DNA of 64,000 nucleotides, taken from assembly GCA_050084515.1 (NCBI GenBank), contig CM114271.1, positions 24,490,001 to 24,554,000 on the forward strand, in the 5' to 3' direction. The notes under the pieces were generated by a model. It saw nothing but the letters and a program-made list of their open reading frames with translations. It searched no databases and was not told the origin of the DNA. A program made the translations under genes and the position numbers. Each line of letters begins with the position of its first letter. The stretch's first letter is position 1. Shown here in pieces: positions 29,069 through 64,000 of the stretch. This stretch comes from Blasia pusilla (taxonomy: Eukaryota).

Positions 29069-30793
29069 ATGGGTTACCTTTCATACTGCAGAGGTCGTTC
29101 AGCCGTCTTCACCTGCGATTCATGCAAGCGACCATCGAAGCCAGTGGATGTGAAGGTGTTCAAGTTCAGTGAACTCGAGAATGCCACACGAGGTTTTTCC
29201 GAGAGCAATCTATTGGGCAAAGGAAGCCATTCTTGCGTTTACAGGGGCAACCTGGAGGATGGGAGGGTCGTAGCAGTGAAGAGACCGACGGTTGGGCGCA
29301 GGGCTTTGCAGGATGTGTCTTCCTTCGACAACGAGCTCGAAATCTTGTCCAAGCTACAACACCGGCACTTGGTGAATCTTATTGGTTACTGCAACGAAGA
29401 CTCCGAAAGGCTGCTCGTGGTTGAATTTATGGGTAATGGTACTCTGTATGAGCTTCTTCATTGCAGTTCCGAGCCACTGAGCTGGCCCCTGAGGGTGCAC
29501 ATGGCTCTGCAAGCAGCCAAGGCCTTACTTGCTTTGCATTCCGCTTCTCCTCCCATCATACACCGCGATGTCAAATCTTCCAACATCTTGGTGGATGGAT
29601 CCTGGAATGCGAAAGTTGGAGACCTTGGACTGGCACTCCGTGGTAACCTAGAAGACGTCGTGCGACAAAGAACTCCACCGGCAGGGACGATGGGCTACAT
29701 AGATCCGGAGTACGAGACTCCATCACAGCTCAGCACCAAATCGGACGTCTTCAGTTTCGGGATTCTGCTGCTAGAGATTATGAGTGGGCGAAACGCAATT
29801 GACGTCAGATACAATCCTTCCGGGATTGTCGACTGGGCCGTGCCTCTCATCAAACAAGGAAAAGCGCTTGCGCTGTGTGATCCGACTCTCAATCCCCCTC
29901 AGAACGCCAAGGTGGTGAAACAACTCGCTGCTATCGCTGCCAGATGTGTGAGACTCTCCAGAGATAGGCGTCCGTCGATGGCCGATGTGGTGGAAGGCCT
30001 CCGCACTATTAGAAGAAAATGTCCTACTCCGCGCTTTGGTGGGAAACCGGCGAGGACCACGGCCTCTTCTCAGCCAGTCTTGAAGACTGAACCCACGGAA
30101 AGCCTCAGCGATAGTGGTTCCTCATGCCGATCCCAGAATCTTTCGATCTTCGATGAAGGCAGTATCCTCGACGAGGCGGAGATGTCCCGAGCGGAGTCTC
30201 TCATTAGAAGTCACACCTCAATTAGGAAACGCCTGAGGAATCTTTCCGATTCGTCAAGAGTGTCCGACAGCGAACTATTTCTAACAGCATCTGGCAGGAG
30301 GGGCGAGCTGCAAATTTTCGAACCCAACAGATCTACCTCCAGAGACCCCACGAAAAGAGAAGCGGGTCGGAGTGTCGTTGCTGTGACGCCATCCGCACAG
30401 GCTACAAGAAAGCCCGAAGATTCAGATTATTGCGCGAGGAGGGGAGATTGTACAGCCATCACTTCTGGAGAGAACAGAGTGAACCCTCGACGGACCATCG
30501 TGGGGGAGCGGAAAGCTCTACCGGGACTTTGGGAGATGGAGGAGAGCTCATCCAATGTCGAGGAAAGAACCACCACCGCAGGAGACGATTCGCAACATTC
30601 TGCCATGCAGAGATGCTTGAATTTGAGAGTCTCGACGGAATCCAGTCGTGACGCGAGTTTGGCGATGGGATGTGGGGTAGATGAGAGTAGCCATCACTCA
30701 CCCAAATGTGCAGAGGATGGTTGTCGGCAGCTCACGTACTGTCCAGATGAGAGACAGATGACTCAGATGTACAAAATGCCAATTTCTGCCTAA
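29069..30793 (+). CDS. Receptor-like cytoplasmic Ser/Thr kinase (At1g28390/At3g51990-like), intronless, 574 aa
   Basis: Starts MGYLSYC. Motifs LGKGSHSCVY, VAVKR, HRDVKSSN, DLG, GTMGYIDPEY, KSDVFSFG, RRPSM, then a long Ser-rich tail. The frame is open throughout. Confidence 0.95.
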   Translation: MGYLSYCRGRSAVFTCDSCKRPSKPVDVKVFKFSELENATRGFSESNLLGKGSHSCVYRGNLEDGRVVAVKRPTVGRRALQDVSSFDNELEILSKLQHRHLVNLIGYCNEDSERLLVVEFMGNGTLYELLHCSSEPLSWPLRVHMALQAAKALLALHSASPPIIHRDVKSSNILVDGSWNAKVGDLGLALRGNLEDVVRQRTPPAGTMGYIDPEYETPSQLSTKSDVFSFGILLLEIMSGRNAIDVRYNPSGIVDWAVPLIKQGKALALCDPTLNPPQNAKVVKQLAAIAARCVRLSRDRRPSMADVVEGLRTIRRKCPTPRFGGKPARTTASSQPVLKTEPTESLSDSGSSCRSQNLSIFDEGSILDEAEMSRAESLIRSHTSIRKRLRNLSDSSRVSDSELFLTASGRRGELQIFEPNRSTSRDPTKREAGRSVVAVTPSAQATRKPEDSDYCARRGDCTAITSGENRVNPRRTIVGERKALPGLWEMEESSSNVEERTTTAGDDSQHSAMQRCLNLRVSTESSRDASLAMGCGVDESSHHSPKCAEDGCRQLTYCPDERQMTQMYKMPISA

Positions 30794-43900: not shown

Positions 43901-45395
43901 ACGGTGAGTCGTCCACCAGTGGAAGGCGTGATCCTTCAGAAACGTGACCGCTACAGTCACCTTGTCTTACTCATTTCCCTTTTTTGCTTCGAAATAAAGT
44001 TTGAGTTCCATTAGAAACTCGCTCACTTTCCGAGAACGCCCCATTTATCTGAATGGCATTGGCAAATTTGTCTTACAAAGCTTCTTGCCGGAACTAGAGG
44101 CTCCATTCGACTTGAGTTCTACCATCACCCTGCTCTATTCGGCCATCTGGTCCAGCATCACCTTCATCAAACCCCTCATTTGGGTATAAAAGGCAGGGTT
44201 GTTAAGTTTGGAGCCAAAGGCCCCGCGGAAAGATTTGCGTTTGAACCATGCTCTTGACTTGGACTCGGCACTTTGGGAGTTGTAATCTCTACCTCAGGCT
44301 CATGGTCCGTCATTAATTTGTCTCTCGTCTTTTTTGCTTTGACTCGTGGCTTCCTCCGTTCTTCGCCCTTGGTCGCCATTTGTGAGTCCTCCCTTTCTCA
44401 GATCTACTCCTCGTCTCTTGCATTCCTCCTCGAGCGTCGTTGTCGTCTTGCTACCTTGAGTTCTTCTCAAACGTCCAGATCTTCTACGACCACAAGTTCA
44501 CACTCATCAAGGATTTGCTCTAATACCACGTGTCCTCCGCCTACTCTCCTTGAACTTTAATCTTGTTGTTGCGGAAGCGTGTGTTCAGTAGGTCACGCTC
44601 TCAACATTGATCTGCATCCAAACACACACTCTGGTTAGTCAAGTCTTGAATCAATCAGCGCGCTAACTTTCTGAGTTCTTGTCTTGTTCTCTCATCAAGC
44701 TCAACCTTCCTTGTTTCGCGGTTTACAACATGGGAAAGTCTCAAAAGACTCGAGACAGACTTTATAGTCGGTTCAGGAATCTCAAACGGCGTTTCGCGCC
44801 TAGTGGTTCCAACTGTCCCATGGACATCCAATGAGTCCCTAACCGAGACTCCTACAAAGTGAATCTCGGTTCAGAATCTAAGTGTGGCATACAAAGTCCA
44901 CTCCCTTGGATTAAGTTTGGGTTTCAAGTTCCAACGCCAAACTCCCATTCCATACGTGCCTCTGAGACGCCGTTTCGTGCTCAAAGTGGGGATTCGTGTT
45001 CCAAGACATCTTGGAGAGAATCCTCCCTTACTAGTACTTCTGGGAATATCCAGGGTTCCCTACATTCAAGGAAAGACATCCGGGCCTCTCTAAACGTTAT
45101 GGTCCAAAACACATTCAAATTCCCCAAACGTTAGTCGTGTTCCAAAACTGGTTCTCATCTCTTTGGCAACCAACCTTCCAAGACTCAACTCATCTCAAGT
45201 CTTGGCTCGCGTTTGGTCTAGGTTTCCTGGTTGCGACCACTAACGCATGAAACGTAAAACTCTACTCCACGTTTCGTCTCTTCGACTTTTCCAATAGAAC
45301 TTTCCAAAAGCCTCTCCAAAGCGCGAACATTGCAGCGTGAGTCCACTTGAGTTCTGATGTTCCGCTTGGCTCCTATTTGGTGTTGTTTGGCGACA
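34937..45395 (-). mobile_element. Ty3/Gypsy chromovirus D, two LTRs, carrying a nested insertion
   Basis: LTRs 34937-~35920 and 44531-45395 (TG...CA), near-TSD ttagg/ttaga, Met PBS at 44517-44528. gag-PR-RT ORF 42326-43960 (LVDTGAS), RT YIDD at 41942-42247, RH and INT at 40200-41950, chromodomain at 36320-36640. Confidence 0.92.
36646..40194 (-). mobile_element. Nested, internally deleted chromovirus related to D
   Basis: ATCAC TSD at 36641-36645 and 40195-40199. Full 3' LTR 36646-37648, PPT 37649-37660. RH-INT ORF 38943-40127 and chromodomain ORF 38336-38683 (EFEVETIL..YLVKWKGY..ATW). Only ~85 bp of the 5' LTR remains (40110-40194). Confidence 0.92.
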
Positions 45396-46639: not shown

Positions 46640-49600
46640 TTCAAACCCTAAACCAGCCGCCGTGTCGTGCGCATACACATCTCTACACAACATACATCGC
46701 TGTCACCGAACACACACACAAACACGGACAATCTCATGCTAACTCATGGCATCCAAATACAAAGGCAAGAAGTACCAAAATATCTCCAATAAAGTAAGAT
46801 CCAATCTCTCTCTACACCATCTCTCAAAGGTGTGCACTCTCTCTCATGTCAAACCAAACCCACTCTCCTAATGAGAGTCTTGGGTTACATTCACAAGGCA
46901 AGGGACCATAGCTTTGCCGCCTCATGCCAAGAGGTTCAACAAAGAGAGAATGAGCTCTCAAGATCTCTCTCCTTGAGGTATACCCCTCCCCTCACCCAAG
47001 GTCTCTCCATGGTAACCTATTCTCCCAAGTCACCTCCTTGGCTCTTGACCTGATGTAGGAGGTCAACTTATCCTTGAGCAACTGAAATGCTCGCTCCTGC
47101 TCATCCCCCCAGTGCCACTCGTGATCCACCTTGGTTAGCAAGGTCAGCGGCTTTGCAATCGAACTGAATCCCTTGATATATCATCGATAGAAGTTCGCCA
47201 ATCCCATGAATGCGCTAACATGGCTCACATCTGTAGCGCGTGGAATGCGTGAGATAGCCTCTACCTTTGTTTGATGAACAACAAGGCCCCCTAGGTATAT
47301 CGTATGACCCAAGTACTCAATCTGGTCATAGAAGAACTTGCACTTGCCTGGATGTAGCTTCAGCCCATGTAATTGCAATCGTCAAAACACCTCCTCTAGA
47401 TGTCGCTCATACTCCTCAACCGTGGCGCTAAAGACTACGATGCCATCAATATAACACCTAGCAAAATCCAGACCAGCCAAGATCCTATCCATCACCCTCT
47501 AAAACTCATCCGGGCGTTCTTTAACCCAAATGGTAAGAACCGCCACTCGTACAAACAATCCTTCCCATGAGGATCAATGCCCCAAAATGCCGTCTTTTGC
47601 CTGTCCTCCAATCTGATAGGCAGCTGATGGTATCCGGCTTGCAAATCCAATGAACTAAAAACCTTTGCATGGCCAATCGCATCAAAGATCTCCTCAGGGG
47701 TGGGCATGGCATACCTATAAGACTTCCTTTGCCGATTGATAGGTCGGTAATCCCCACACATCCGCCTATCCGTCCAGTTGCCATGCACATCCTTCTTGGC
47801 GGGCATGACAATGGCATATGCATACTCCCCATGTGACATCTCCACTAGTCTTGCTCCAACCAAGTCCTCACTCCTACTCTGAATCAGATCCCTCTCCATA
47901 TCACTGTACATGTAGGGTTGTCATAAGATAGGCGTATAACTCGACAACTCAATGCAGATCCCCGGTCCCTCCAACGTACCCAAATCCTCCATGCTAAATG
48001 CAAAGAAGCTCCTATAACTCGTGAGGAACTGATATATTCGGCGCTGCTCTCCTCCTGTCAACTTAGGGCCCATACCTGGCTCCCAAGTCTCCATCGTGAC
48101 TACGGTAGGACTCTCCCGAGCGGATATCGGTGGTTGCTATGGTGCAACCGCGTCTTGAACAACAACACTCGACCGCTCTCCTACAGCCAAGTGCAAACTC
48201 TGATCTCATTCACATGCATTGCCGGGAACCACGCTCGATGCTGTGGCTATCATCTCCAGGCGTACCTGCAAAACATCCCAAGAAGTCCAAGGGTGTCTCT
48301 CTCGATCTCCCCTGGTGTGTCGATCTCCTCAGGTCTCGCCCACAGCCACTACCTCCACCGTCTTGGTAGGCATGGGGCTCACCAACGCAACTGCTGTGAT
48401 CTGGTGCGATCTCATCCGACGCTACTCAGCCACTCCCAAGCTGAAGATCCGTGTCAAGCAGTTCACGTCCATCGCCTGACCCAAGACATGGCATCGTGAT
48501 GCCTCTGATACTTACGATACTTCCGTCACTCCTGTGGGAAATCCCATCGCCCGCTCTCTCTCATCGACGTTGGGCTCCACTGACCTCTAAACCTGGTTAT
48601 CCCAAACCAAGCCTGGATTGGCCTCCTTGTGTGCATAGGAAGCAAGAAAACTCACAAACGTGGGAAAGGCTGCCCGCGTCTTGCCTACCATGTTGGCCAC
48701 AGTCAATGGTGGTCGATCATCATGCCTCACTGCCTATGAGCGACGACCTGGATCTAGAATGGAATCCACTAACAAATAGGAGGGGCGCTCCACTCTCGCA
48801 TACGCCCTCCATAACACCGCATAGGGCACCAAGTTGGTCCACCATAGACGCGGGCGATGGGCTCTAGAACCTACACTAGCCGCATCCAAGAACACTGGTG
48901 GGCCGATCCACGCACGCACCTAATGAGCACTCATCATCACCCGTGACCTGGAGTCTCCTAAGATCGGCACATTCTCCAGAATGTAGGCTGGAGAACAAGA
49001 CTGGTGCTCTTGCAACTACCGTAAGACCCTCAACATCTCCCAAAACAACCTGGACCGAGTGTTAGCCAACCCGCTGCCTCGTCCAGCACTCGATTGGCCT
49101 TGACATGGCCAATCGGCAATGACCAAATCAATGGTGCCTAACCGGTCTAAGTCCTGCGCCCCCAGCAACAAAATATCCCTCGGTAGGGAACTCTGGTACC
49201 CGTGTACGGCGCACGCACACAATAAGTCGGGAAAACATAGGCGTAACAGCGCCACATGTCGTAGTGAGACGCTCCTCGCAACATCATCATTCTCCACATA
49301 CAGGTATTGCTGCACTTGTACTCTTGCCTGCAAAACAACAGCTAACCCCGTGCTAATCCCTCCAAAGTGATCTAACATTCAAATACCCTCCTCCGGGGTA
49401 CACCACACAATGGGTGTGGTATCCAAGGGTGTCATCGTAGCACTCCCTGCTACCTCGGGTTCCTCAGGAGGGTGTCATGCTCTGGTTGAAACGCCTCGCT
49501 CCATGCGGTTTGCACGTGCTCATCTGCCAATCGTCGAAGCTCCTCAATCAAGCCCCACAGCGGCACCTCTCCTCCACAAAATGATGCGGTTACCATAACA

Positions 49601-52600
49601 CTCCTCGCCATAGAAATTTTAGGAATGGGAGTATCCTCTGCATAGACATGTCCCTCAATCAAATCACTAGGCCAATTGATGGCATTGCTAAATGCTGCTA
49701 AGGTCGCCATCTCTCCTAGCCGTTGCTCAATCACTGCACATCTGAATCAAACAAGTAATGAGCTAAGGCGCCCATCACATTACTGCCATCATGGTCTGTA
49801 GGACGCTGACTCTTCCCAATAGTCCCGGGAAAACCCCATCAGGTATAACACTGCTCCACCAACCAAGACGTCGTAGGACTCTACATCAGTCACTATCGCC
49901 TTGGCTCGCACCACAGACTCATCTGTAGGATGTCCGAGGAAAATCCTCACCACAACCTCATGTCGGGTGATATACTGTGTGGTACTCGCTCCACCCAAGG
50001 ATGTCTATATCCGGAATGGACAACGCTCCACATCGGCTCTCGTCAAGCCCAATCCTCTCAATGACGCTTTCCCCAACATAAGGGGTTGCGCTCCTGAATC
50101 CAACAAGACGCGTTGCGGACTAAAAGCTCTACCTCCCAGACTCACCAACTAGAAAATCTCTCCAGCAACACAACACCAATAAGCCATGGCACACTCTATC
50201 GCGGGTCTAGTAGGCATCTCTGCCATCCTAGCAGCCGCAAACTGCCATGAATCTCACGTGGATGGACCGAGCATCCGCTCCAAGGGCAGGTCCATCACCT
50301 CCTCTGCAATCACCTCTGAACGTGATGCAAGAACTCCAACTCCACGCTCACATAGCGTAGCGGCCAGCCGAAAAGCCTCGGCGGGCGTATCCCCCAACGT
50401 CATAACATCGGAAGCAGAAAATAATCGAGTGCAGTACACAATGGTGGCCGCCCCCAACAACGTGCTCGACACATGCCCCTCCTGAGCATAAATAATAGGA
50501 GTCGTTGCACTCGCTTCTCCCATGGCCCTCCGTGCTTGCATACCAACAACATCACGAACTCTCTAGGAACTCTGATCAGGACCCATCGATGGGGTCCTCA
50601 TCGCCTCGGACAACGTGAAAGACTGAGGAAGCCTAGTCTATTTCTTGGCTCCCCTTCACTGTGGATCCAACTCTATGGCTGCTCCATGCATCACAATTGC
50701 GGCAACCTCCATCTGGGCAACCCCGCACATCCAACCAGGACCCTCCATATCTCTGGCTGCTCCATATGATGTCGATGCCACGGATGGGGCATCGGGTAAT
50801 CTCAATGTCATAGCAGCAATCTGCTCATGTAGCTGATGTATCTGAGCAACCATCCTAGCCTCACACTTTGCATCTCCCTCAACGCGTCTAGGTGGTAGGA
50901 CTCTACCTCCTCCACGGGCAGCTCTACCACCCTGTCGGGAAACTCCAGCTCCTCATCCCCCAACGCGACCACCTAGTGCATGATCTCTAGGCCCACCTGG
51001 ACTGGCTACTCGCTCTGGCCCTCGGTCCGGACATAACTCAAGATGTAAACTGAAACACCTGGCGCGTGTATTACCATACCTTTAACAATAGTCACACTGA
51101 TAACCTCCTGGTGCACCACCATCTCCTCCTCCATGCAGAGGCACACGTCCATGACCCTAACGAGTGCAATCGCGTTGATGATGGCTCCACCACATGACGA
51201 ACAAGTAATAGTAGGCGGCTGCTACAGAGCCGCATATGAAGGCGCAGGTCTCTGTGGCACGGCCTCCCGATATCCTCCCTGAGCTCGTAGTGCCACAGTC
51301 AACCTATCTCAGAGTCCACGTTGCTGCACAGGTAGTGCAGACAATCGTGACTGCTCTCGCCCAGAACCCATGGTGGCTACACTCTCCTCCGCCATGTTGC
51401 GCTCAATGTTCTCGATGGTCTTGAAAACATCTCTCAACGTACGGGAGGTGTTCATAAGAAGCACCCCCTCCCGCACTCGTGTCCGCAGGGTCCGATCCAA
51501 CATCACATACAATGATTGGATAGCCTGAGCCTCTGTCACCCCTTGAGTGACGTTGATCAACCGGCGCAAGCGAGTGTAAGCCTCACGAAAACTCTCACCG
51601 GGGCGCCTCTGGAAGTCGTGGATGCTCCGCAACTTCTCCGTCCGTACCCTGTGGTACTTGGCCCTCAACTCAGCAAAGAACTCAACCTCAGCGTTGAACG
51701 TGGGACGAACCCGAATAGACGGTGCAACTACTCCCGTGCGAGTGACCCCTCCTAAAACGTCACGAGTGGAAGAGGAAGTAGCCTCTCCTCACTCCTCGTC
51801 CTCATCTGGGAATGGCTCCGTCCATCACACATAATGTGGGTCATAGTAGAGCCTCTACGCCTCGATGTCACGTGCATATCTCTGAGAGAACTCATGGTAA
51901 TCGTCCATGGGTGACCCTCTAAATGTTGGAACATACCGTTCCATGCTTATAACGGGTTGAACTCTCTAGAGTTCCCGGCCTGCTGCGAGTTGCACCAACT
52001 CCTAAACTCTGCTATGAAATCGTGCAACTCAATCGTGCCTACTGCACCTGAAAACCTACGGGGTCCTCTAACTTGATCGTCCATCTCGTACGCCCAACTG
52101 GTAGGACCACTCACAATGTGTGGCGATGTGCTCACAAACTCCTCTACACGCTCCCCCTCGTCTGAAGACGAAAGAGAAGGAGATCGAGGTGGTCACTCAC
52201 GTGGAGACCCTCGAAACCTCGCACCACTCCGGGTAACCCTCTAGAGCTACTCTCAAGTCTACTACCTCGCCTCTCAAAATCCTGAAAGGGCGCCATGATG
52301 GCCCTCATGCCCCTCTCACACGATCACTCTCAACCTCGCGAGTAATTCCTCAATCATTCATCCCAAACATGCGGCACTCGATCTACACTCTCCCTCCCCG
52401 AGACGTGTAACATGCAGCAACAAGCGGCGTGGTGCGGCAAATCGACAAGGCTATCATCTCATCGACAACCTACCCTCAACTTTGGACATCCCACACAGGT
52501 CTATGTCCCCTAAACCACATACATAAATAATGCTCTCAGCTTCCACACACCCAATATCCCCAAATAAACCACCCAAATCCCAGAATCTCTCACACGTGCA

Positions 52601-52780
52601 GGGTAAAGGACCAGAATGGGTAACCTGAACACATGTCGATGTTGCTCCTCAACAACTTCAAATCTTGACCCCAACTTGTTCGTGGAGACAACTCCTCCAA
52701 TCAGCAAGTCAAACTCCTCCCGTACTGACGCTGCTTAAAACTCCTTGATGGACAGTGCGGTTCCAACGGAACGGTGGAGG
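46640..52780 (-). mobile_element. Ty3/Gypsy element E: gag-PR-DNMT-RT, RH/INT deleted, partial 3' LTR
   Basis: gag fragments 51309-52135, protease RVLLDSGAQP at ~50090-50115, DNMT 48435-49390, RT 47070-47950. RT end joins directly to the PPT (46983-46993) and LTR. Confidence 0.85.
48435..49390 (-). pseudogene. C5-cytosine DNA methyltransferase domain embedded in Gypsy pol (in-frame stops)
   Basis: Motif I LDHFGGIS, IV LVIADWPCQG, VI AYILENV (~48969-48989), VIII AHRPRLWWTNL, IX ERERAMGFP, X R.HVLGQAMDVNCL. All lie in the same frame as the downstream RT ORF 47492-47911. Confidence 0.9.
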
Positions 52781-53149
52781 TGCAGTAAGAGGAGAGGAAG
52801 AGAGGAAGAGAGGAGAGAGGAGAGAGGAAACTACCTTCAACCGAAATAGATACTTTTTTTTGAAGAGAGTTTCCGTTGGGTTGAAGAGATGAAACTTTTT
52901 GTGTGAATTTTTTTGCACTTTTTTGTTCATTTATTAAACAATCCCACAGTTTTTTTTTCCTCTTCCATATTTTGGCAACCCCTGTGAGTCCGACGAGTTG
53001 CAAATTGCACAAAATTTACAAAACTGAAAAATCAGTGGAATCATAAGTGTGGAACCAATCACTTTTTCCATCCAAGGTCTGGAAAAAATCTATCATTTGC
53101 CCCGGGCTGAATAGAGTTCAAGCTCACAGTGAAGGTTGAGAAAAAAATA

Positions 53150-56100
53150 AAAGTACAATCTAAAACCTCATTTTGCATCCTCAAAGTGGTTTGTTTAAAA
53201 TACTTGAACTTCTTTGAGGGATGGGGTGGTTGGTGGATTCCTACTCCTACCTCCGACTCTCTTAAAACTACCAAACAACACATAGTACATGTGCTTACAA
53301 GGGAAATACCTTTTGCCACTTGTCTCTCTTTGGACAAAGTCATCACATGAACATGTGGGAAAGCAACACATGTGCACCATATACACCCCTGTGACACTTG
53401 AATTTACAGTGTTGCTCCTGACCCAATACATCCTTCCTATTCCATTGCCACTCAGGACATCTTTCGTGGCGATGATCTCCATTTTTGCCTCCCGAGCTGC
53501 TGCTATTCATTTTGCTCTCTCCACCGTTGGCCTACACATTCTGTTTCTCTTCACCCCATTTATAGACTCAAACAGAAATAATGGATTGAGATCATCCACC
53601 TTCTCCGGGTACATGTTGACATCAATCTTGGGTTGAATACGAAATGCGAAGGTCTCTGTAATGCGAACATGCTCCGAACTTCCCCCGTCTACGAGTCTGA
53701 AACCGGCACTTGTAAGATTGTCCACGCCGTCTTGAGTGCGATTCGTACTGCGGCGATGGGCCAAATCGTGGGGGTATTCCCGGGAGCTCTAATGGCAGCC
53801 GGATAAGACTTCCGGAAAGCGCAAGATTCATTTGGGCAGAAGAAGTACTTCAATTGATCCCCGGTCCTCGTGAAACGATCAAAGGTTTTGAGTCCCCAAA
53901 ACCCAGGCAGCGTGATCGTCGATCCTTTATGATTCTTATTTGGGAAAGTGCCGCATGCTCTCCTAATGCCATCGAGATCTGCCCTGTCAGAGGTGGGTCC
54001 ACGTCTGGTTGCTCCGAGATATATGCCACCGTTTTAGGTTGCAATCCACCTCCATTACCGGAATCCCATATTGTTGAACCACCCCAGTGACAGGATGTTG
54101 CGAACTTCCAGCAACGGAGGGCTTTTGAAATAAAACATTCACTGATTTTGGAGAAGTAACTCCATCACAGATTTGGGACGGGTCCGGGGTCCCCGAATAC
54201 TTGGGCGGTGTAATTTCCTCATCCAAATCAATCACCGGATTTGTTCCTCGATGCTGCCTCTTCACTTGCCTGAAGTCAAGATACTTATCTGGTCTCCACG
54301 AGTCTCGTTCGGACTGCTCTACCACCATCTGTATGGGACGTCTTGAAACCCGCCCACGAATATCCCCACCTATGTGTACGTCTTGCTCGAGTGGAGTTCA
54401 CTACGCACCGGTTGAAGGCCGACATACAATTTTTCATCACCAGATCTCATAGCCGCCCTGACATAGAGCTCGTAGATCGACGGCCCTTTTCCTTTTGTTA
54501 TGCCTTTTGTGAGGAAGATATGAGATGCTGCAGATTGTAGCATTGCTCTTGCCTGGTCTTGTTGGCATGCCTCCACAAGTGAAATTCGTTGGCATGCTTG
54601 TGATGACCTCCAAGAGGAATGAACACTTTCTGCTCCACTTGTGTTGGGGCAAAGGGCATTTTCATGAACGTTCAATCCCTGCAACGACGGCAATGTTAGA
54701 AGGGAACGAAAATAACCCAGGAGTCAAAGAAATAAGCGACCTGTCGGAACCAGACGGGTTGCAGGCTCGAGGCATCCCATGAACGACTCTGCGACACGTC
54801 GGGTCCCGACGTGTTGTAACCTTAAACCCACCTACTGCAACCCGTCGGAACCCGACGGGTTGCAAGGCCGAGGCATCCCATGAACGACTCTGTGACCCGT
54901 CGGGTCCCGAATGGTTGCACACTTGGGACCACACCAAACATCTGGATGCAACCCGTAGGTTTCCGTCGGGTTGCACACTCGGGAAACCCGTCGGTTTCCG
55001 TCGGATTGCACACTCGGGCAACCCGTCGGTTTCCGTCGAGTTGCACACTCGGGCAACCCGTCGCATCCGACACCTTGCTTGGTTTCTTGGGTTTGAATTC
55101 CATATAATTCCCACGCTTCTCACCCTGAGCTACAACTTTACAAACAATTCTCAGCGTGAGCTTGACAAGACAAAATAGTGAACTCACCTGCCCCATGAAG
55201 TTTCCCCATTGTCTCACACGTACAGTCCACCAACTCAACCAAGAGCACGACTCTTTGTACTTCCCCTCAATCGCATGCTTCCTCCACCACCCATGAAGTT
55301 CTTCCTGGCAGTCCATGGCCTGCTTCAAGGTTTTGCTGTCCTTGCAGCGTTGGAGTAGAGTCACATGCTCTGTCCTCTTATTCTCCTTGATGCAAGATTT
55401 GGTGTATCGGATCACAGACTGTTGCCAATGGAAAGCATCCGACCTTTCCCTCTCCGGTTGAACCTCTCCACCCCAGAACACTTCCCGGATAGCAATCCAC
55501 CCAGGTTGTGCATTGTCCGCCATGAACCCATAAATTTCCGGAGGTGGCTTTTTGTTTTCCTTCACCACCTCCAATAAGAGTGACCAACACATCTTCAAAC
55601 TGCCAACGTCTTCTGCCTTTACTTCACACACAAATATAGTTTTGAGTCCCTTCTCCACATGGTCATAAACGTGAGCACCCATCGTCAACCATCCGTTCAG
55701 CACTCTGTAGCAAATATCAAAGTTGACCCAGCTCCCGTAAAGATCTTCCCCTTTCCTCATTCGATCTATTAGATCGAGGCCACTCGAGGGACGTGTGGTT
55801 GACATTTTGAAGACATAGGCCCTGGATCCCTCGCCTCCTTGGCCCATGAACTGCCATCTCTGAATGAATGGAAATCTGGAGTTGGCCTTGATTCTGGCGA
55901 TGGCATCCATTTCGGCCGTCTTTCCATCCAGAACTCGTATCTGACGCAACAAATTCCGGAAGCATTAAGGATCAGCGAGAAATGCGAGATTTTCCCAAAG
56001 TTGTTTCTCCTCAACCGCCGTGATCTCGCCCTGTCCAGGAATTCCAAGCAATTGTTCACAAATTTGTGATGCCGTTGTGAGCTTGATCACCCCGGGCTTT

Positions 56101-56900
56101 GAACGCGGAGAGTTTCTGAAGACCTCGGCTACTTTCTTCGCCACATCCTCCTTGATGTGTCTTTGAATTGCATCGGTCACAGGATGAGTGTGGGAGCCAA
56201 CATGAAGCGCCACCTTGTATACTCGGCGTGGAGCCCAAGTCATGGACAATGAAAAATATGTATGCAGGACACGCTCCAACGAAGGGCGATGCGACAATGA
56301 GGACATCGATGGCCTCCCGGCGGTATTGTGGCACCCACCTCGTATGGAGTTTCTGCATTCTTGGGGGAATTGCGGCGTATTGACTCGCCCGTTTGCGCTC
56401 TAGATACGAGCATGCTGGACTTCTACACTCCAAGGCTCCCACGCATTGGCGGCGGGAGACAATCCAAGGACCATCGGGATGGAAGCACCGGTCCGTTGCG
56501 TACCTGCACCATCGATGACAATCAGACTTTCTGTCCATACCCTTCAGGCGTCCTCCATCCTTCTTTTGAGCAGGAGCAGCAAGTGGAGGCAACTCAAAAA
56601 TGCAATTACCATTGTACGTGGGCTGCAGCTCATTGACAAGAATGTGCTTGAACATTTTCAAGGCGTAGACGAAAGCAAACTATTGCCGATACTCGCAAGA
56701 GAACGAGTAGGCGGACACAGGCCCGATTGGTGTCCAAGCAGATCGCCGAGGTTGATAACATCCGGAATCTCTTGAGGAAGAACAACATTGTTACGAGTGT
56801 GCAAAGTTGGAGTCGAAGCCAGATCTGCAGAGCTTGGAGTTGCAAACGTAGAGCTCGGAGCACTAGGAAATTCTAGACCGTCTACTTGGGAAACAGACGA
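53150..56900 (-). pseudogene. MULE-type DDE transposase with N-terminal GCM/WRKY-like Zn finger and C-terminal SWIM finger, frameshifted; intron 54679-55187
   Basis: N-term RRQCVGALECRSPAC..GACPAY..HVGSHTHP. Catalytic core NFDICY, FMADNA, DAFHWQQS. After splicing (GNFMGQ|gtgagt...gcag|GLNV) comes GAESVH. SWIM CSCDDF..PCKH in ORF 53195-53482. Confidence 0.85.
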
Positions 56901-59900
56901 ATTCAGGGAGGGCCGTAAACTTTGTATTGACCATTTGCTCTGGTAGGAGATTCCATACTTTACGGTGCGAGGTCACTTTGGATGGACCGTCTCACCTATT
57001 ATGTCTTCCGTACCTTCCACCCTAACATCTTTGGATACAAAGATGGTTCCAATTGAAGAAGAAATCAAGCAGACAGAAAATTTTCATCCATTGCTACGAA
57101 AGACTCACGAGCTTGGGGTCGAATGATTTCGATTGAGGAAGGGCATAAGATGACCGCCACAAGTGAGCTTAACATAATTATCCATTCCAAGAAGATTCCT
57201 ACGAGGAGAGGCGAGAATGAGAATGAGAATATTTAATTTATAGTGAATAGGAAACAAATACTCTGATGATTTTTCTTGACAAGATGAATTCGGTGGGGAG
57301 ATTATCGACACAATGGATCAATTTTGTAACACATTCAATTGTGTTGCAATATGTTACCGGATTTGGGAAGCATAGGGTTGCGCATCACTTGGAACCCGTC
57401 GGAGTCCTGGTAACTCAGAAATTACCCGAAGCTTACCGAAGCCTACAACCCGTCGGCATCGGACAGGTTGCACGCTTCTGCTAAACATTGTCGAAGCGAG
57501 CAACCCGTCGCTCTCCGACGACTTGCTGCGATACCGCTCCTTCTTGCTCGAAGATGCCGGAGGCGTGCAAACCGTCTGTTCCCGACGAGTTCCGCGGGTG
57601 CCTCGCCTTTTAGCCCAAAGACGGCGAGGCGTGCAACCCGTCGCCGTCCAACGGGTTGTGCAAGGGCGTCGCCTTGTGGTGCAGCCAGCCAAACTCCGAC
57701 GACTTGCACGGGAAGCCATCGTTCCTAACCCTTGATGAGGGAAGCGTGCAACCCAACAGTCTCCGACGGATTGCCCAAAATACGTCCGTTCCGTCCCAAA
57801 CACGCGGAGGCGCGCCAACATGTCGGTCTCCGGCGGCTTGCGCGGGTACCTCGCGTTGTTTTCGAAGACGACGGAGGCGCTCAACCCGTCGGTCTCGGCG
57901 GGTTGCTCGCCCACGCGTGGCGATTTTCGCAGATTGCGAGGCGTGCAACATGTCGGTCTCGACGGGTTGCGCGGGTACCTCGCGTTCTTTTCCGAAGACG
58001 ACGGAGGCGCTCAACCCGTCGGTCTCCGACGGGTTGCTCGCGCACGTGGTGACGTACCCAGGATGGCGGAGCCAGACAACCTGTCGGACTCCGACGGGTT
58101 GCGATTTTTCACGTCCGGACTTCTGTAACATTCGGCACGTCGCCGTCGAAAGGACGACGGGACCCAACGGTCAGCCCAACGGCTAGAAAAGTATAAATAG
58201 GGCAGAAATCGCTCATTTCCGGTTTCTCATTTCGCGATCTTCATTCCTCACTCCTCACTCTCCCGCGCAGCAGCTGATCAGATATAAAGGGGCATTTCAC
58301 GCGGCGACACATCGCGAGTCGATAGGAGGGAACGAGAGCGAGACGGTTCGACCGAGCAATATCGGGACGATTCGAGCTAACCATCAAGGCGAGACGAGCT
58401 CCCATCTCGACATCAACAAGGCGACTGATCAAGGGATTTGTCGTGGGCATAGGTGGAGGCATTTCCGGCAAAAATGACGAGGAAAAAAACACAATCCAAC
58501 AAGTCTGGGAGCTTCACTCCCAAGTCCATTAGGACTCTGCGTCGACTTCTCTCCCGGCCTCGTTCGCGAATGAAATTAAGCGGCAGGAAATCGAGGAGCG
58601 GAAAGGGAAGCGGAGATGCACAACCAAGTGCTTCTGGCGAGACGTGTTCAAGCGGCGCTAGATAAAGCGAACGAAGAGGCCGGGCGTCGCAGGCCTTGAA
58701 GAAAAGGATCGCCGGCGAAAAGAGAGAAAAGAAGCGCCGGGCGCGTCGGTGAGGAGGCGGAATTGGCTAAAGCGAGGCGGAAAAAGCGATAGCCATTGCG
58801 ATAGCCCAGCCCATCCAACCGCAAGTGTTGAGATGCGGGAAATGTCCCCACGAAGTCGGGGACACAATCAACATAGTGGAATCAACACCGAGTTCAAATC
58901 GATGACGACGAGGTCATGAGGAGATGACGCAGGAGGTCAGCGTGGAGATGGTGGACATGGGGAAGAAACCGGAGAGCGGTCATTTCGACTCCAAGCCGGC
59001 GGAGGACATCGACCTCTATCGGATCGACGAGTTCCCGATCGATTTGCCCCTATCTCAGACAAGTTAGTGGTCAAGAAACCGACTCCATTTTCGGCGGGTA
59101 AGAGAAGTTAGGTTTTTAATTATGTGAATTGCAATTCATTGGGATTTCGGTGTAGCTTATTCCTCTTGTCCCATTCGGCGGGTGGTAAAGCGCAGATGGC
59201 ACTCATGGAGGCCCAACGCCCGAGGATTCCACTCTGCGATTAAGGACAATGGAATACGTCCCAAAATCTGATCCAGCGAGGACATCGCAAAGCTAAAACA
59301 ATCGGCGCATAAAGCATCCCTCGTGGGCGAGTTTTCCTCCCTTCTATGTTCGGCCTTACGGACGAGCATGGAACCCAAGCTCAGTTACCGAGGAGGACTT
59401 GGAAAATCTCGACACATTCTACGGAGGATGCGAGACCAAGACTTGAGAAGGCAAGTTGAGGGCACGGAATTCAGCTGGATGAGGAATCTACATTTCTTCA
59501 TCTCGGGATGGAAATCACGAGTTCATGGCGTGGACCAAGTTTGCGGAGGAGCGCCCCAACTCATTGAGGCACATTTCTGCGTGAAGGCGGTGGTCCTTCA
59601 CCCATACCCTCATCACATGGCGGCGGTGGAGATGGCAATGCATGCCATGAACACGTAAGTATCTTTAACATTTTCGCGGCTCGTCGGACTCGGCGAGTTG
59701 CTCGATTGATGAATGGGTTAGGTTTGTTTAGGCGAAAGCAACTTCGTCGGACTCGGCGGGTTGCTAGAAAACACTGATTTTCGGATGTTTTTAAGATTGA
59801 TTTTCGTCGGACTCGGCGACTTGTTTGATGGAACATAAATTTAACTAGTTTTTGGCCCAAAGCAAACCGTCGGAGTCGACGGGTTGCTGACGAGCCGCCT

Positions 59901-60490
59901 TGTGAGGTTGTTTTTAAGAATGCAACTTCGTCGGACTCGACGAGTTGCTCGAGTAACAGCGAGGTTTAGAAGGTTTTGCCCCAAAGCAACCCGTCGAAGT
60001 CCGACGGGTTGCTTGCCTCAAACCATTTTTGGCGAAATCAACCCGTCGGACTCCGGACGGGTTGATATGGGGAAAAATAGCTTTGAGGCAAGCAACCCGT
60101 CGGACTTCGACGGGTTGCTTTGGGGCAAAAACCTTCTAAACCTGCGATCCTCGAGCAACTTGTCGAGTCCGACGAGTTGCATTCTTAAAAAACAACCTCA
60201 CGAGGCGGCCTATCGAGCAACCCGTCGGACTCCGATGGTTTGCTTTGGACCAAAAACTAGTTAAATCTATGTTCAATCATACAAGTCGTCGGAGTCTGAC
60301 AGTTGCAATCTTAAAAACATCCGAAAGCGTCGCGATCAAAGAACCGTCGGAGTCCGGCGAGTTGCTTACCTGGCATTAGCAAATCTGAATGCAACCCGTC
60401 GGACTCCGACGGGTTGCATCATTTAGCTTGTTGCTAGAATCCGACCCTGAGCTGTGATGACCCGTCGGAGTCCGACGAGTTGCAGGAACC
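54740..60490. repeat. Clusters of the palindrome GCAACCCGTCGGA-N-TCCGACGGGTTGC
   Basis: Perfect copy at 60391-60417. Many variants at 54740-55070, 57370-58130 and 59680-60490, plus copies or half sites at ~52975 and 62372-62450. Confidence 0.95.
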
Positions 60491-62150
60491 CATGTAATTT
60501 CCTGACGGGTTGAGTTTGGATGTGTAGGATTGTATCCGAGGGGAATGTCACCCACCATTGGATCAGGACTGCAATCGGGTGAGGAAGGTGCTTACGACGC
60601 ACCCAGGAGAGTACAGGGGGTTCTTGGGCGATGCCCTCGTCAATCACATGCTTGCAAAGGATGCTCAGATTAAGAAGAAAACTTGGGCAAACAAGTTTAT
60701 TTCTCAAGATGCAGCCATAACCATCCTTTGCTGGTCGAAGATACAGCACAAGAAAAGCGCCTGACTGGAGCCGGAGCGGAGGGAGAAGGTATCTAAGTCG
60801 AGCGCCAAATTCATCAAGCCAGATGTCTGCTGCAACGAAATACACGGCGAGCAAGATGCGGCGATACATCAAGCATTCTCAACCCCGAACTTGGTCCGGA
60901 GTTCTACAAGGAGCTCAAGGCGATTATCAGCGTCGGCGGAAGAGGGATGAAGATCCCATGGTCGGAATGGGGAGAAAGTGTCATTTGGATCGCGTGCATC
61001 GTTTTGCGTTATCCGGGATTAGCGAGTTCAGAGGATACGATCGATGAAAATCGATCTCGAGGGCTCAAAGGCCGGAAGAGGGCGACACACCATCCTCGGG
61101 TGTGTCCGATCTAGTGATCTCGCATTGGCTACGTGAATGGTCGTTCGGGGCGGCGTTGCGGGTAATCGGGAAGTCCGTCTTTGGCCGACGGATGATGCAA
61201 GCGGAGCTCGAGAAGATTAGAGCCCATCCGCCGGAAGCAAACCTTGAAAGTTATGGAGATTACGAGGTTTGGCTCGGCGACATCGGGACAAGCCAACCAA
61301 GAACCAGGATTCAAGACCATGTTCAAGGTTTGCGTCCTCCCTCGGCGAGCTTGACGAAGAAGTAGAGGGTAACAAACGGGATCAAGCGAAAGAAGAAGCG
61401 AGATCTGAGGAGCGACGGCCGATAATGTTCGACTAAAAGCTGCCCAACGGATGGTATTCAGGTACCTCATCGAGTGTAAGAACGCAGGTACGTGGGGAAA
61501 ATTACCGGCATCCTTGAAATTGTGGGCTTCGCCGTCGGATGCAGAGACATTCTCCATGTACGACGTGGAGATGGGTCAGCACATGTCGGATTGGGAGGTG
61601 GAGAATTGCCCCATTTGGCTCGACTTCAACGACCCTGAAGACATCATGGATAAGGACTTACGAGTGCTTCATGATGCAATGGCCTCAGGACAAGACGACA
61701 TCCCCAATTTCGTCCAGCCTGAAGACTTCTTCGTTGTACAATTAGATAGTTTGTACAATTCGCCCCCCGGGAATTTACATGCAAGACAGTACCCCGGTTC
61801 TGGGAGGAAGGGAAAAGTTGCCAGCCCTGATGCAAACGCTCATCAAGCTCTGCTCAAGGCCGGGTGACTTGGTGTTCGACTTAGTGGGCCTTTCAGGGCG
61901 AGTATCGAGGCGCTGGCATAGTGGCAGGAACATTCTCGCCTCGAGGAAGGCAGAAGCGTTTGACCTTTGCAAGGAGGCAAAGCGAATCTGAAAGGCTCGT
62001 TGGGGCGTATAACTCTCCACCGAAGCCGAGAGCTCCGGTTCCAGAGCCACCCTTGGTAGTGACTCCATCATCACTTCCAACGATTCCCAAAATCGGGAGG
62101 GCAAGGCCGAAAGTGATTTTGCAAGAGCTCTCGGACGATGACGAGTGAGT
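58474..62150 (+). pseudogene. Spliced cargo gene: basic N-terminus, ParB/Srx-like motif, N4C/N6A methyltransferase-like C-terminal segment; frameshifted
   Basis: TATAAATA at 58192. GT-AG introns ~59098-59155 and 59655-60527. FFI/DGNHEFMAW at ~59494-59533. REKLPALMQTLIKLCSRPGDLVFDL..HSGRNILA in ORF 61779-61991. Confidence 0.55.
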
Positions 62151-62460
62151 TCAAAGAACTCAACGACCAGCTTGATTTGCGGCGTTTGGAGTAGGGACTT
62201 TTTGATAATTTGGCGAGAAGATTTCATAGAATAGATCAAATGTCTGATTCCAAGCTTTTTCGGATGATATAAAGCAGAAGATTTATTCGATCGATGGTGG
62301 TGCTTGTAAATGTTTGGTGATCATTTTGTCTTTCGAATGTGATCGTCTATGTACTCCACGGTCTTCTACTTTGCAACCCGTCGGATTTCTCCCGCTTGCA
62401 ATTTTCACTTTATGACCATCGCAACCCGTCGGATTTCTCCTCCTTGCAACTTTTTGCTTT

Positions 62461-63720
62461 TTGACCATGGACCCTTTTACCACCTCCAGGCAGCTTTGTC
62501 TGATTCGACAGTTGCCTGATCGGACCCTTTCGGATCGGCGATGGCGGGCTTCTTCCCTTGGCACATTCCCTCAACTCGTAAAGGAAGGCGAGGCTTCTTT
62601 TCTTCTCGACGTGTTGGATTCCTTCTACCTGTGCGGTTGCCATAGTGGTATTACCGGGGGCGGAGCAGATATTGATCTTGGATGGGTGTCACATTGCAGA
62701 GCGTACAAGGTATCTTGCCGAGGAAGGCGGTGGGACTCGAGACAGTTACATGGGACCGTTATGGTGTACCTAGGGGGGCCAAGGCTCTCGGTCGCCAACA
62801 TTTTCGATCCCCGTCTACAACCGGCCGGGAGGAGCCACTTGAATCCCGGGACATTCCTTTGGTACATGCCATCGAGGAGAGTTAGGAGTAAATTTGTAGA
62901 TGACGAGGTGAAGAAATCATAGACTAGGTTCAATGTACATTTCGAGGTTCCTTCGGAGGTAATAAAGGGCGAGATTTTTGAACCCATAAAGGTGTTGGTA
63001 AAAGTTTTCGGAATATGTTTTTGGACTTGTGGAGGTGGTGCAAGAGAAAGGCCCAAAGGCGAGTGTCCAAGAACAAGTCAAGAAGATTGTACAAGGTGAT
63101 AATGCAGCCAAGTCACTCCATTGACCTCAAGCCTAGAGGAGACAAGGGAGATGGTGTAGGCACTAGGGAGTCTCAGGGTATCCAATGAAGGAGATAGAGT
63201 GCTTGATTGTTTGTTGTAGAGGAGGGTTTGAACCAAGGGGTGGATCTGATTGTTAGGGCCAAGAAATGAAGAATAAGGGGCTAAGAAGAGGTCAATGGAG
63301 GCTGAGCTCAAATGCTTGGACTCTTGTGGGCTAGAAGATTCCTCATGGAAGCCTAGAGGACCTCATTTGAAGGCCATAAAGCTTGAGAATCCAAGGGAGA
63401 GATCTATGGAGTTGAGAGGATCCAAGGAGTGATTTGTGGAAGATTTGTGCGAGGTGGAGCTAAGTGGAGGTGTGAGCGAGGGCGGGGCTCGAACCAGATT
63501 GAGAAGAAGCAAGCATGGGAAGAATATAGAGGTAGATCTCACCTTCAAGCATGTCCAAGAGACAGTCGAGCCTATGCCATCAATGTTGCTCAAGAGGCTT
63601 TAGTTAGGGCAGGTTTAGAAGTAGATGAGGTAGAAATTTCAGGCAGTAGATGCCTTGGAGTAGATGCTTAGGGTTGGCATCCGGGTGGTCCTCCAACAAA
63701 AATACCAAGGGCACCTTTGC
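62461..63720 (+). pseudogene. Possible third, unrecognised coding region of the MULE-like element
   Basis: Coding-like + strand ORFs 62461-62922 and 63429-63671 with purine-rich degenerate frames between them. No motif recognised. Confidence 0.3.
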
Positions 63721-64000
63721 TTTTTTGTTGACCGAGATGGGGAGATGTTAAGAAACTTAGGCTCACATGGAGAGTGATGGAAAAATGTTTGTAGTGGTCT
63801 TATGATGTCTACTTTTTTTTCGCCCCAAGGAAAAAGGAGGTTTTTTTAGGGCCAAATGTGGACCACTACCTACTCTCTTCTAAAGATTTCATGGATTTGA
63901 AAGCAAACAAAAATTTCAAATATGTCATAAAGTTTTGAAGAGAGGAGGCGGATTTGGCCCTTTTTTTTGAAGAGAGACTCTCCTCTCTTCCTCTCTTAAA

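Follow-up and report, generated by a model that had tools for sequence, protein, structure and literature searches.

A CpG-dense palindromic motif confined to non-coding parts of a decayed Mutator/IS256-type transposon

Described motif clusters and the present locus

In the available part of PMC5735166, VANC21 motifs are described as tandem repeats in introns, in intergenic stretches and in non-coding terminal sequence within a single MULE family, where their density matters, and the VANC proteins as carrying the domains DUF1985 and DUF287. For TnpA and the AtMu1c transposase, binding takes place at clusters of their cognate motifs and leads to family-specific hypomethylation and activation; this regulation needs high motif density, and the binder may be the transposase itself (bioRxiv 10.64898/2026.08.24.746577, in the portion accessible). 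The subterminal motifs of Muta1, a MULE of Aedes, are repeated and, like its palindromic motif at the termini, are bound by the transposase, with more motif copies giving better binding and the palindromic pattern being of importance (PMC5499845, available text).

In this study, a palindromic motif was analysed in a window, the whole stretch of Blasia pusilla DNA under examination (64,000 nucleotides). A preliminary description of the locus had compared the motif with the VANC targets. This comparison holds for the anatomy, with tandem motif arrays in introns, in intergenic stretches and in non-coding terminal sequence; the VANC targets of VANDAL21 and VANDAL6 likewise have a dense tandem motif in their non-coding parts and motif-free coding regions, as far as the available text goes (PMC5735166). 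The likeness is one of sequence anatomy here, whereas binding and hypomethylation are features of the VANC targets. According to the same partial source, the VANC motif is 9 bp long, AT-rich and in one orientation (PMC5735166), whereas the motif here is a CpG-dense palindrome of 27 bp. With respect to the protein the comparison failed, as neither DUF1985 nor DUF287 was found in the + strand ORFs of at least 35 aa or in the minus-strand ORFs; a further difference from the VANDALs is that Pfam MULE models do not detect the transposase of this element.

The half-site of the motif shares a CCGTCG core, maybe by chance, with the TnpA(Spm1) motif CCVTCGCAAA. In the accessible portion of the same report, the AtMu1c and TnpA clusters are situated at termini or TIRs (bioRxiv 10.64898/2026.08.24.746577), whereas here the large arrays occupy internal positions, in the promoter region and in introns, with only 1–2 sites at the termini. 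Muta1 resembles this locus in having a repeated motif with a palindromic pattern, binding by the MULE transposase being a feature of Muta1; its motifs are 10–12 bp long, are located in the TIRs and have a role in cleavage and excision, and the available text describes no internal intronic arrays, unlike the present case (PMC5499845). A ParB-like protein acting on the sites in the manner of parS had also been suggested. Palindromic sites could in principle load a dimeric protein, as in parS/ParB; however, this is a eukaryotic nuclear transposon, no ParB N-terminal domain was detected in its ORFs, and the search for ParB-family Pfam matches in them at E values up to 1 was negative, contrary to the suggestion.

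Copy number, confinement and conservation of the motif

Scanning of the window with the half-site GCAACCCGTCGGA gave 10 exact matches, 23 matches at ≤1 mismatch (0.05 expected) and 44 at ≤2 mismatches, all 44 inside 52900–62500 and none in the other 54 kb. At ≤3 mismatches, 63 matches were within 52900–62500 and 16 outside, the latter figure being at chance level. The full 27-mer had 9 matches at ≤3 mismatches, compared with 0 in each of 100 shuffles. When half-sites were paired, with dyads defined as two half-sites having ≤7 mismatches in total, 31 dyads were obtained in the window scan, all within the element and distributed over five clusters. The earlier impression of dozens of palindrome copies or half-sites is borne out by these counts. 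The element and clusters are as follows.

52862..62449, no strand: probable extent of the element (~9.6 kb), containing all dyads and half-sites; ends tentative
52975..53001, no strand: cluster A, a single dyad, situated in the transposase 3′ UTR
54736..55078, no strand: cluster B, 8 dyads; two copies of a 101-bp unit followed by 3.3 copies of a 35-bp unit
57391..58102, no strand: cluster C, 11 dyads and one lone half-site; period ~65 bp
59676..60513, no strand: cluster D, 10 dyads (≤7 mismatches) and ~4 more degenerate ones
62373..62468, no strand: cluster E, 1 dyad; a 48-bp unit twice

The dyad consists of a 13-nt half-site, a 1-nt centre and a second 13-nt half-site, and contains 4 CpGs and 4 CHG cytosines. 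Of the 31 dyads, 24 have a centre gap of 1 nt, 6 have none and 1 has a gap of 2 nt, and the perfect 27-mer is present as a single copy only (60391–60417). In the arrays, one dyad occurs per 35–67 bp, with 31–42% of the bases within dyads. None of the 44 half-sites falls inside homolog-mapped exon (1839 bp), in agreement with the absence from exons noted previously. All motif and conservation figures are derived from one copy of the element, itself dead.

The conserved unit is the motif, not the spacer. Identity between clusters was 0.74 for the motif and 0.29 for the flanks, as compared with 0.30 for random sequence, and the corresponding values within clusters were 0.76 and 0.40; the five separate clusters have the motif in common and nothing else. 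Alignment of the 11 units of array C placed 6 of 6 invariant and 9 of 9 near-invariant columns in the motif. Within the half-site, positions 1–5 (the GCAAC arm) showed conservation of 0.82–0.97. Changes were least frequent at CpG positions (25 of 248, 10.1%), the counts for CHG-context positions, other C/G positions and A/T positions being 28 of 124 (22.6%), 27 of 186 and 43 of 248, respectively, with changes over tandem copies representing non-independent events. The CpG observed/expected ratio (o/e) was 1.11–1.38 in the arrays, where values above 1 in part merely reflect motif composition, 0.72–0.75 in the transposase exons and 0.79 in the rest of the window.

Genes, introns and ends of the element

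This is a plant transposon of the Mutator/IS256 type, invisible to Pfam and present here as a dead copy; its genes and related features are as follows.

53195..57187, minus strand: transposase gene of the Mutator/IS256 superfamily, decayed copy (homolog mapping and fold)
54679..55187, minus strand: transposase intron, GTGAGT...CAG, filled by cluster B (colinearity with homolog P0012)
58475..62148, plus strand: orphan-family gene or genes, broken across several frames (ORFs)
59655..60527, plus strand: putative intron, GTAAGT...TAG, filled by cluster D (splice signals and open frames)
59720..60386, no strand: large palindrome (667 bp) of two ~333-bp arms, centre 60053, centred on a dyad

Homolog P0012 mapped by tblastn to 56637–56395, 56216–55194, 54654–54457 and 53410–53273, and a CxC...CxH stretch of the transposase aligned with its residues 968–1014 at 45% identity. 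The nearest clusters in the protein atlas were MULE/ZSWIM1-3 RNaseH-like (0.94). With the model of the transposase core (pLDDT 77.9), the top 5 PDB matches were the ISCth4 transposase, which we take to be a member of IS256 (E 3.9e-6 to 7e-4), followed by Hermes; the predicted structure points to a DDE transposase core of the RNase H-like type, akin to that of IS256/MuDR, and the IS256 and Mutator superfamilies are linked. Searches with Pfam MULE (PF10551) and Transposase_mut (PF00872) gave no match in the window ORFs or in nine relatives (P0001, P0003 and P0007–P0013), and the SWIM match of the transposase was weak (E 0.0057; 16.6 bits, under the cut-off of 19.6). An in-frame stop (TAA) is situated at 55962–55964, and the DNA-binding domain is scattered across three frames. 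The N-terminal Cys/His-rich module, ending in H-x-H-P, is conserved and found in 5 of 5 full-length relatives. This is the part of the proposed GCM-like domain that stood; the structure model of the module (pLDDT 45.6) was too poor to establish a WRKY-GCM1/FAR1-type zinc-finger fold, and Pfam and PDB sequence searches gave no match.

Residues 610 and 619 of P0012 map to 55194 and 54654, so that 540 bp is skipped; the transposase intron, previously said to be filled by the motif, is thus confirmed by homolog colinearity and carries cluster B, the CpG o/e of which was 1.11 (computed on 54683–55187, four bases short of the intron). A second small putative intron of this gene, at about 56945–57108, is motif-free. 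Cluster C, a 0.7-kb array with GC of 0.62 and CpG o/e of 1.37, fills the space between two divergent TATA boxes, located by reading at ~57235–57245 on the minus strand and at ~58193 on the plus strand (TATAAATA), and its 11 dyads agree with the motif-filled divergent promoter region described before.

For the plus-strand gene, a search of 1.84 billion representatives gave no more than 2 relatives, P0007 (E 9.7e-5) and P0008 (E 5.4e-4); both map to 61436–61672, and a Pfam scan of the two gave no family. No Pfam family was above threshold in any + strand ORF of at least 35 aa, and the region 61746–61988 gave a weak match to N6_N4_Mtase (E 0.029). Cluster D does lie where a cargo-gene intron had been proposed, the intron itself being putative, as judged from open frames and the signals GTAAGT...TAG; frame 0 of 59568–59654 could be joined to 60528–60761 in phase 0. 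The period of cluster D is ~62 bp (124/125-bp double units) and its CpG o/e, computed on the 59657–60527 block, is 1.38. Self-inverted BLAST of the large palindrome gave 82.9% over 683 columns, and RNA of the putative intron folded into one long hairpin of −564.7 kcal/mol, compared with −277.8 kcal/mol in shuffles (z −38.7). Such a long hairpin was found in cluster D only, clusters B and C having nothing past unit-level palindromes (61–65%).

The left limit of the motif domain is 52975, or 52872 if a further half-site with 3 mismatches near cluster A (52872–52884) is counted, instead of 54740 as first reported. A minus-strand AATAAA is located at 52930, past cluster A. At the other side, the copies or half-sites reported from a spacer before ORF3 proved to belong to a tandem repeat of two 48-bp units, in both of which an exact left half-site precedes TTTCTCC..CTTGCAA; this repeat, cluster E, is probably the right terminal region of the element. 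The outermost half-sites of the two ends are inverted relative to each other, the ends show gapped inverted similarity (a GA-rich stretch and the half-site), and in one tentative register the T-rich flanking 9-mers match at 7 of 9 positions. CpG o/e falls to 0.51 in the block 52700–53190, which straddles the tentative left end, and in 62471–64000, beyond the right end. The Mutator (MULE) superfamily is defined by TIRs and a 9–11-bp target-site duplication (TSD). The best local alignment of the two ends was not above shuffles, giving no significant TIR, and a search at the ends for an exact TSD with a clean TIR was negative. The window is repeat-rich, and outside the element it holds no dyad and no half-site at ≤2 mismatches.

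Candidate function of the arrays

The arrays are quite possibly family-specific binding sites for an element-encoded protein, the reading we favour, drawn from sequence and analogy. We infer that the dyad would be the recognition site of a sequence-specific DNA-binding protein of the element, the most probable candidate being the transposase, as a dimer, via its conserved N-terminal domain rich in Cys and His; a less probable binder would be the orphan + strand protein. The single inverted sites near both ends would mark the ends for transposition, and the dense internal arrays, lying both between the divergent promoters and within each transcription unit's large intron, would bring numerous protein molecules to elements of this family and to no others. 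The recruited protein may then act by trans-activation or by protection from silencing, as do the AtMu1c transposase, TnpA and VANC at motif clusters. Binding by a strict dimer would be weakened, because 105 of the 403 pair positions in the dyads are asymmetric and the gap is not 1 nt in 7 of the 31, and the end-recognition part of the proposal is weak because no significant TIR or TSD was found.

An unlikely alternative is a neutral, self-propagating palindromic minisatellite, in which a hairpin-prone 27-bp unit would have arisen once, spread by slippage, unequal exchange and hairpin-templated repair, and survived only where reading frames stay unbroken, with no protein reading it. The arrays are tandem (periods of 35, 64/130, 124/125 and 48 bp), purifying selection alone would give the exclusion from exons, the half-sites decay independently (the 105 changes being one-sided), and a comparison of the two arms of the D palindrome shows similar decay in motif and spacer (84.1% of motif and 80.7% of spacer columns kept; Fisher p 0.48). 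However, simple tandem duplication would copy the spacer along with the motif, yet flank identities are 0.29–0.40 as against 0.74–0.76 for the motif. Palindrome-restoring double changes numbered 6, compared with 3.4 expected, and without an excess hairpin-templated correction is not evident. The conservation of CpG positions above all others also runs counter to what neutral decay would produce in methylated plant repeats. Insertion of a separate short foldback or MITE-type element carrying the palindrome, nested here and unrelated to the proteins of its host element, is very unlikely: cluster D is foldback-like, but no TSD was seen on reading at the borders of its palindrome, the five clusters have five different unit structures, no copy is present in the other 54 kb of the repeat-rich window, and a scan of metagenome contigs for the motif gave a single, unrelated palindrome only.

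It is rather improbable, and compatible with protein binding rather than exclusive of it, that the arrays, above all the 667-bp intronic palindrome, are a trigger or target of silencing, giving dsRNA from the element transcript, out of which the host would make small RNAs directed at the family, in the way of a Mu killer-like inverted duplication. The single long hairpin of intron D, with arms 82.9% complementary, is consistent with this, as is the better folding of arrays B and C than of shuffles (z −4.3 and −6.0, respectively), and RdDM acts on VANDAL non-coding regions (PMC10398659, available part). The long hairpin is, however, limited to cluster D, and motif conservation across clusters and the end sites would be left unexplained. 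Those end sites, together with the intron arrays, also count against host transcription factor sites captured by the element as an enhancer, the least probable explanation. CCGAC, which is the DRE/CRT core of plants, occurs in the half-site, and array C is placed exactly between the TATA boxes, but the conserved unit of 13 nt with its GCAAC arm is far longer than the DRE core.

If the arrays are neutral, they are an ordinary internal minisatellite. Sequence-specific recognition of transposons by their own proteins at dense motif clusters has up to now been worked out for VANC, TnpA and AtMu1, all in Arabidopsis. If binding by an element-encoded protein is true, this locus would add a second plant lineage and the strategy would be a general one, arising repeatedly, here with another set of proteins and with a motif that is long, CpG-dense and palindromic. 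The dyad would then also offer a direct test of the methylation sensitivity of recognition, because each has four CpGs and four CHG cytosines. A fuller proposal, which we regard as doubtful, is a VANC-independent system of self-recognition and anti-silencing in a Pfam-invisible Mutator lineage of plants, in which a dimeric CpG-reading protein (the transposase Cys-rich domain or the orphan + strand protein, with its degenerate methyltransferase-like motifs) would act on the CpG-dense palindrome arrays in the promoter region and introns and keep them unmethylated, and which the host may counter via the 667-bp intronic hairpin. With the same arrays also forming a long intronic hairpin, the element would be a compact case of the contest between anti-silencing and RNA-directed silencing.

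Occurrence of the palindromic motif

In this window, the full 27-mer of the CG-rich palindrome (two 13-nt half-sites and a short centre gap) was found in 9 copies at up to 3 mismatches and in none of 100 dinucleotide-preserving shuffles, while the half-site at up to 1 mismatch was present in 23 copies against 0.05 expected. The occurrence of the palindrome is real and far above chance, bearing out the repeats noted in the preliminary description. Within the window the motif did not occur apart from the element, the case named as refuting in the preliminary description: at a tolerance of 2 mismatches, the half-site was present 44 times, always inside the element at 52.9–62.5 kb and never in the remaining 54 kb. 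At 3 mismatches, 63 half-sites fell inside the element range and 16, the chance level, outside.

The half-sites paired into 31 dyads, all inside the element, with a centre gap of 1 nt in 24 dyads, 0 nt in 6 and 2 nt in the remaining one; only a single copy among them was a perfect 27-mer. Five clusters, A to E, were distinguished.

Clusters of the palindromic motif in the window
52975–53001, cluster A: 1 dyad
54736–55078, cluster B: 8 dyads
57391–58102, cluster C: 11 dyads
59676–60513, cluster D: 10 dyads and approximately 4 more degenerate ones
62373–62468, cluster E: two half-site units

Scanning of metagenome contigs with CAACCCGTCGGNNNNCGACGGGTTG gave one locus (L001), which carried a single palindrome without an array and was judged unrelated. 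Among sequencing runs, 15 contained part of the stretch, none of them half or more and none listed as RNA; these small shares, some from air metagenomes, do not enter the evidence. The motif strings were absent from the searched literature, save for matches whose titles and opening abstract lines were unrelated.

The transposon and its genes

The motif-bearing stretch is one transposon, with a transposase gene on the minus strand and one or two orphan-family genes on the plus strand. Searches for its ends found no significant terminal inverted repeat or exact target-site duplication. The ends were tentatively set at 52862 and 62449 (approximately 9.6 kb), a register with gapped inverted similarity, flanking T-rich 9-mers agreeing at 7 of 9 positions, and a CpG observed/expected ratio dropping to 0.51 at or beyond both ends. 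If this register is right, the ORF to the right of cluster E ("ORF3" of the preliminary description), which has no recognisable family, lies outside the element; ORFs right of 62416 had no match in Pfam. Neither a low-complexity GA-rich inverted match of 20 nt nor a 17-nt direct repeat with 11.1 kb between its copies was accepted as the ends. Microsatellite-like GA-rich stretches occur at 52788–52829, 52853–52869 and 63960–63997 (the window stops at 64000); they form a perfect inverted match of 20 nt, with 11.2 kb between its two parts, beside the perfect 17-nt direct repeat CTTTTTTTTGAAGAGAG.

Five full-length relatives of the transposase were found, and the relative P0012 (1050 aa) mapped colinearly to 56637–56395, 56216–55194, 54654–54457 and 53410–53273. 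No Pfam model recognised the transposase ORFs of the window or their relatives, including the ORFs of the 3′ half of the gene, and the family profile (A4) had no match among PDB sequences. The transposase was filed under the Mutator/IS256 superfamily, as a lineage invisible to Pfam, because its core adjoined MULE/ZSWIM1-3 RNase H-like clusters in the protein atlas (0.94), the AlphaFold core model (pLDDT 77.9) had ISCth4 transposase structures as its five best PDB matches (E = 3.9e-6 to 7e-4), with Hermes next, and there was a weak match to a SWIM finger at the C-terminal end. ISCth4 is a member of IS256, the bacterial family related to Mutator.

An in-frame TAA interrupts the core at 55962–55964, and the N-terminal Cys/His-rich domain (56243–56637, minus strand) was read over three frames, its middle piece matching residues 244–264 of the relative P0009 (E = 4e-4). 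Either this is a dead copy or small indels are present in the assembly; a deletion in the DNA-binding domain was rejected, the domain being spread over the three frames instead. In four relatives on short contigs (P0001, P0009, P0010 and P0011), the conserved RQWG motif is in each case followed directly by "...IRLV..." and shortly afterwards by the end of the protein. A common intron, placed where the intron with cluster B lies, is probable in these four; P0012 runs uninterrupted across this position.

The plus-strand protein had only two relatives (P0007 and P0008; E = 9.7e-5 and 5.4e-4) among 1.84 billion representatives, both without a Pfam family, and the plus-strand ORF at 61409–61864 had no match among longer proteins in a word-index search. 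The sole functional hints came from 61746–61988 (plus strand), where N6_N4_Mtase matched below threshold (E = 0.029) and PDB sequences gave weak methylase-like matches only (precorrin-6y methylase, E = 0.12; M.RsrI, E = 1.8). This plant transposon may encode here an orphan methyltransferase-like protein, perhaps an inactivated one. Towards the C-terminus of P0007 and P0008, a degenerate stretch resembling (D/S)PP(Y/W) was seen by eye.

The window is repeat-rich, with retrotransposon genes of the gypsy and copia types besides an intact kinase ORF. Since the protein-atlas clusters closest to this kinase were all Streptophyta (0.99), the host is a plant. The kinase ORF (29006–30790, plus strand) encodes a 595-aa single-exon protein kinase (Pkinase/PK_Tyr_Ser-Thr) and is surrounded by repeats. 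A chromodomain-bearing gypsy-type region at 36259–43966 (minus strand) has integrase and RNase H ORFs in two sets (38946–40142 and 40549–41694), suggesting a nested or duplicated element. Among retrotransposon pieces (RVT_1, 47495–47920; weak gag, 51312–51788), an ORF at 49019–49378 (minus strand) matched C-5 cytosine DNA methylase (PF00145, E = 1.8e-6) and could be a gene fragment or a repeat-borne methylase. No Rfam match and no tRNAs were found.

Non-coding placement and constraint

None of the 44 half-sites fell within the 1839 bp of homolog-mapped exon, and ORFs running through the arrays had no Pfam family. Cluster B lies inside a 540-bp interruption between P0012 residues 610 and 619; this colinear interruption and its GTGAGT...CAG borders confirm the transposase intron. 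A small putative first intron of the same gene is motif-free. Cluster C occupies the space between a minus-strand TATA box (approximately 57240) and a plus-strand TATAAATA (approximately 58193), upstream of both divergent genes. Cluster D lies between GTAAGT at 59655 and TAG at 60527, a putative intron judging from splice signals and reading frames. At the termini, clusters A and E occupy non-coding DNA, and the outermost half-site of one is inverted relative to that of the other.

The constraint tests gave three results, not all in agreement, and all their counts over tandem copies exaggerate how many independent events there were. Between clusters, the 26 motif positions were 74% identical versus 29% for the 18-nt flanks (random level, 30%), and within clusters the values were 76% and 40%; in an 11-unit alignment of array C, all invariant or near-invariant columns fell in the motif. 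Since motif identity was high and the flanks were at the random level between clusters, spacer sequence has turned over around a motif that was itself preserved or regenerated. In methylated plant repeats, CpGs should decay fastest. The four CpG positions of the half-site were the least changed (25/248, 10.1%; 12 transitions) and its two CHG-context positions the most changed (28/124, 22.6%; 20 transitions). Such CpG retention could reflect selection on the bases concerned or a low level of CG methylation. The CpG observed/expected ratio was 1.11–1.38 in the arrays versus 0.72–0.75 in the transposase exons, partly restating the composition of the motif itself. The third result speaks against constraint: between the two arms of the large palindrome of cluster D, motif columns (84.1%) were not better conserved than spacer columns (80.7%; Fisher p = 0.48). 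Nothing thus points to constraint after the inverted duplication took place, as expected if that part of the history belongs to a dead copy.

Candidate binding sites and alternatives

The constraint pattern, together with an anatomy matching three experimentally studied systems, makes the arrays candidate binding sites for an element-encoded protein, our favoured reading, held at a little under an even chance. Plain tandem duplication of neutral DNA would keep spacer and motif alike; a neutral palindromic minisatellite is an unlikely account of arrays with turned-over spacers, the similar conservation of both column classes in the cluster D arms notwithstanding. Sites for a host factor are very improbable.

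Two further alternatives concern folding. The segment 59720–60386 is a single palindrome that has a dyad at its centre and arms of approximately 333 bp (self-complementarity, 82.9% across 683 columns), and the cluster D intron as RNA gave −564.7 kcal/mol versus −277.8 in shuffles (z = −38.7); arrays B and C formed unit-level hairpins only (z = −4.3 and −6.0), without long-range symmetry. A hairpin triggering small RNAs is compatible with the binding-site explanation and, as the explanation itself, is rather improbable. One-sided changes occurred at 105 of 403 dyad pair positions, and palindrome-keeping double changes, tested as a sign of hairpin selection, numbered 6 versus 3.4 expected, so that the hairpin as such shows no sign of selection. 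Nested foldback or MITE insertions would also yield inverted structures of this kind, and with no target-site duplication seen at the borders of the D palindrome they appear more improbable still.

As to which protein would bind, the transposase is the most likely reader of the arrays, through the Cys/His-rich N-terminal module common to all five full-length relatives. Of the "GCM-like" domain proposed earlier, a conserved zinc-finger-like module exists; the GCM fold is not established, the N-terminal domain model having a pLDDT of only 45.6 and the DNA-binding domain ORF no match in Pfam or PDB sequences. Two leads are the similarity of the GCM binding site, ACCCGCAT, to ACCCGTCG of the half-site, and the start of the maize TnpA motif, which is likewise CCGAC. 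The alternative of a ParB-like reader was unsupported, as a ParB domain, or any family above threshold, was found in none of the ORFs.

The three known systems are closely alike in anatomy to the arrays described here. The suggested VANDAL analogy is apt in this respect: VANC21 motifs in VANDAL21 likewise lie in introns, intergenic and terminal non-coding regions, with binding decided by their density (PMC5735166). The VANC domains named there (DUF1985/DUF287) were not found in the ORFs of the element. TnpA and the AtMu1c transposase bind clustered cognate motifs, leading to hypomethylation and activation (bioRxiv 10.64898/2026.08.24.746577), and the Muta1 transposase binds both a palindromic motif at the terminus and repeated motifs in subterminal position (PMC5499845). 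In a literature search for palindromic motif arrays in MULEs, the Muta1 and VANC work came nearest.

In the binding-site reading, the terminal sites would serve end recognition, and the dense internal arrays would recruit the protein, in a family-specific manner, to the promoter region that the genes share and to both large introns, for protection from silencing or for trans-activation. That transposons carry dense clusters of cognate motifs in their non-coding DNA is already known; new are the long CpG-dense palindromic form of the motif, the internal array placement combined with a Mutator lineage without VANC, and the intronic hairpin made of the same arrays in cluster D.
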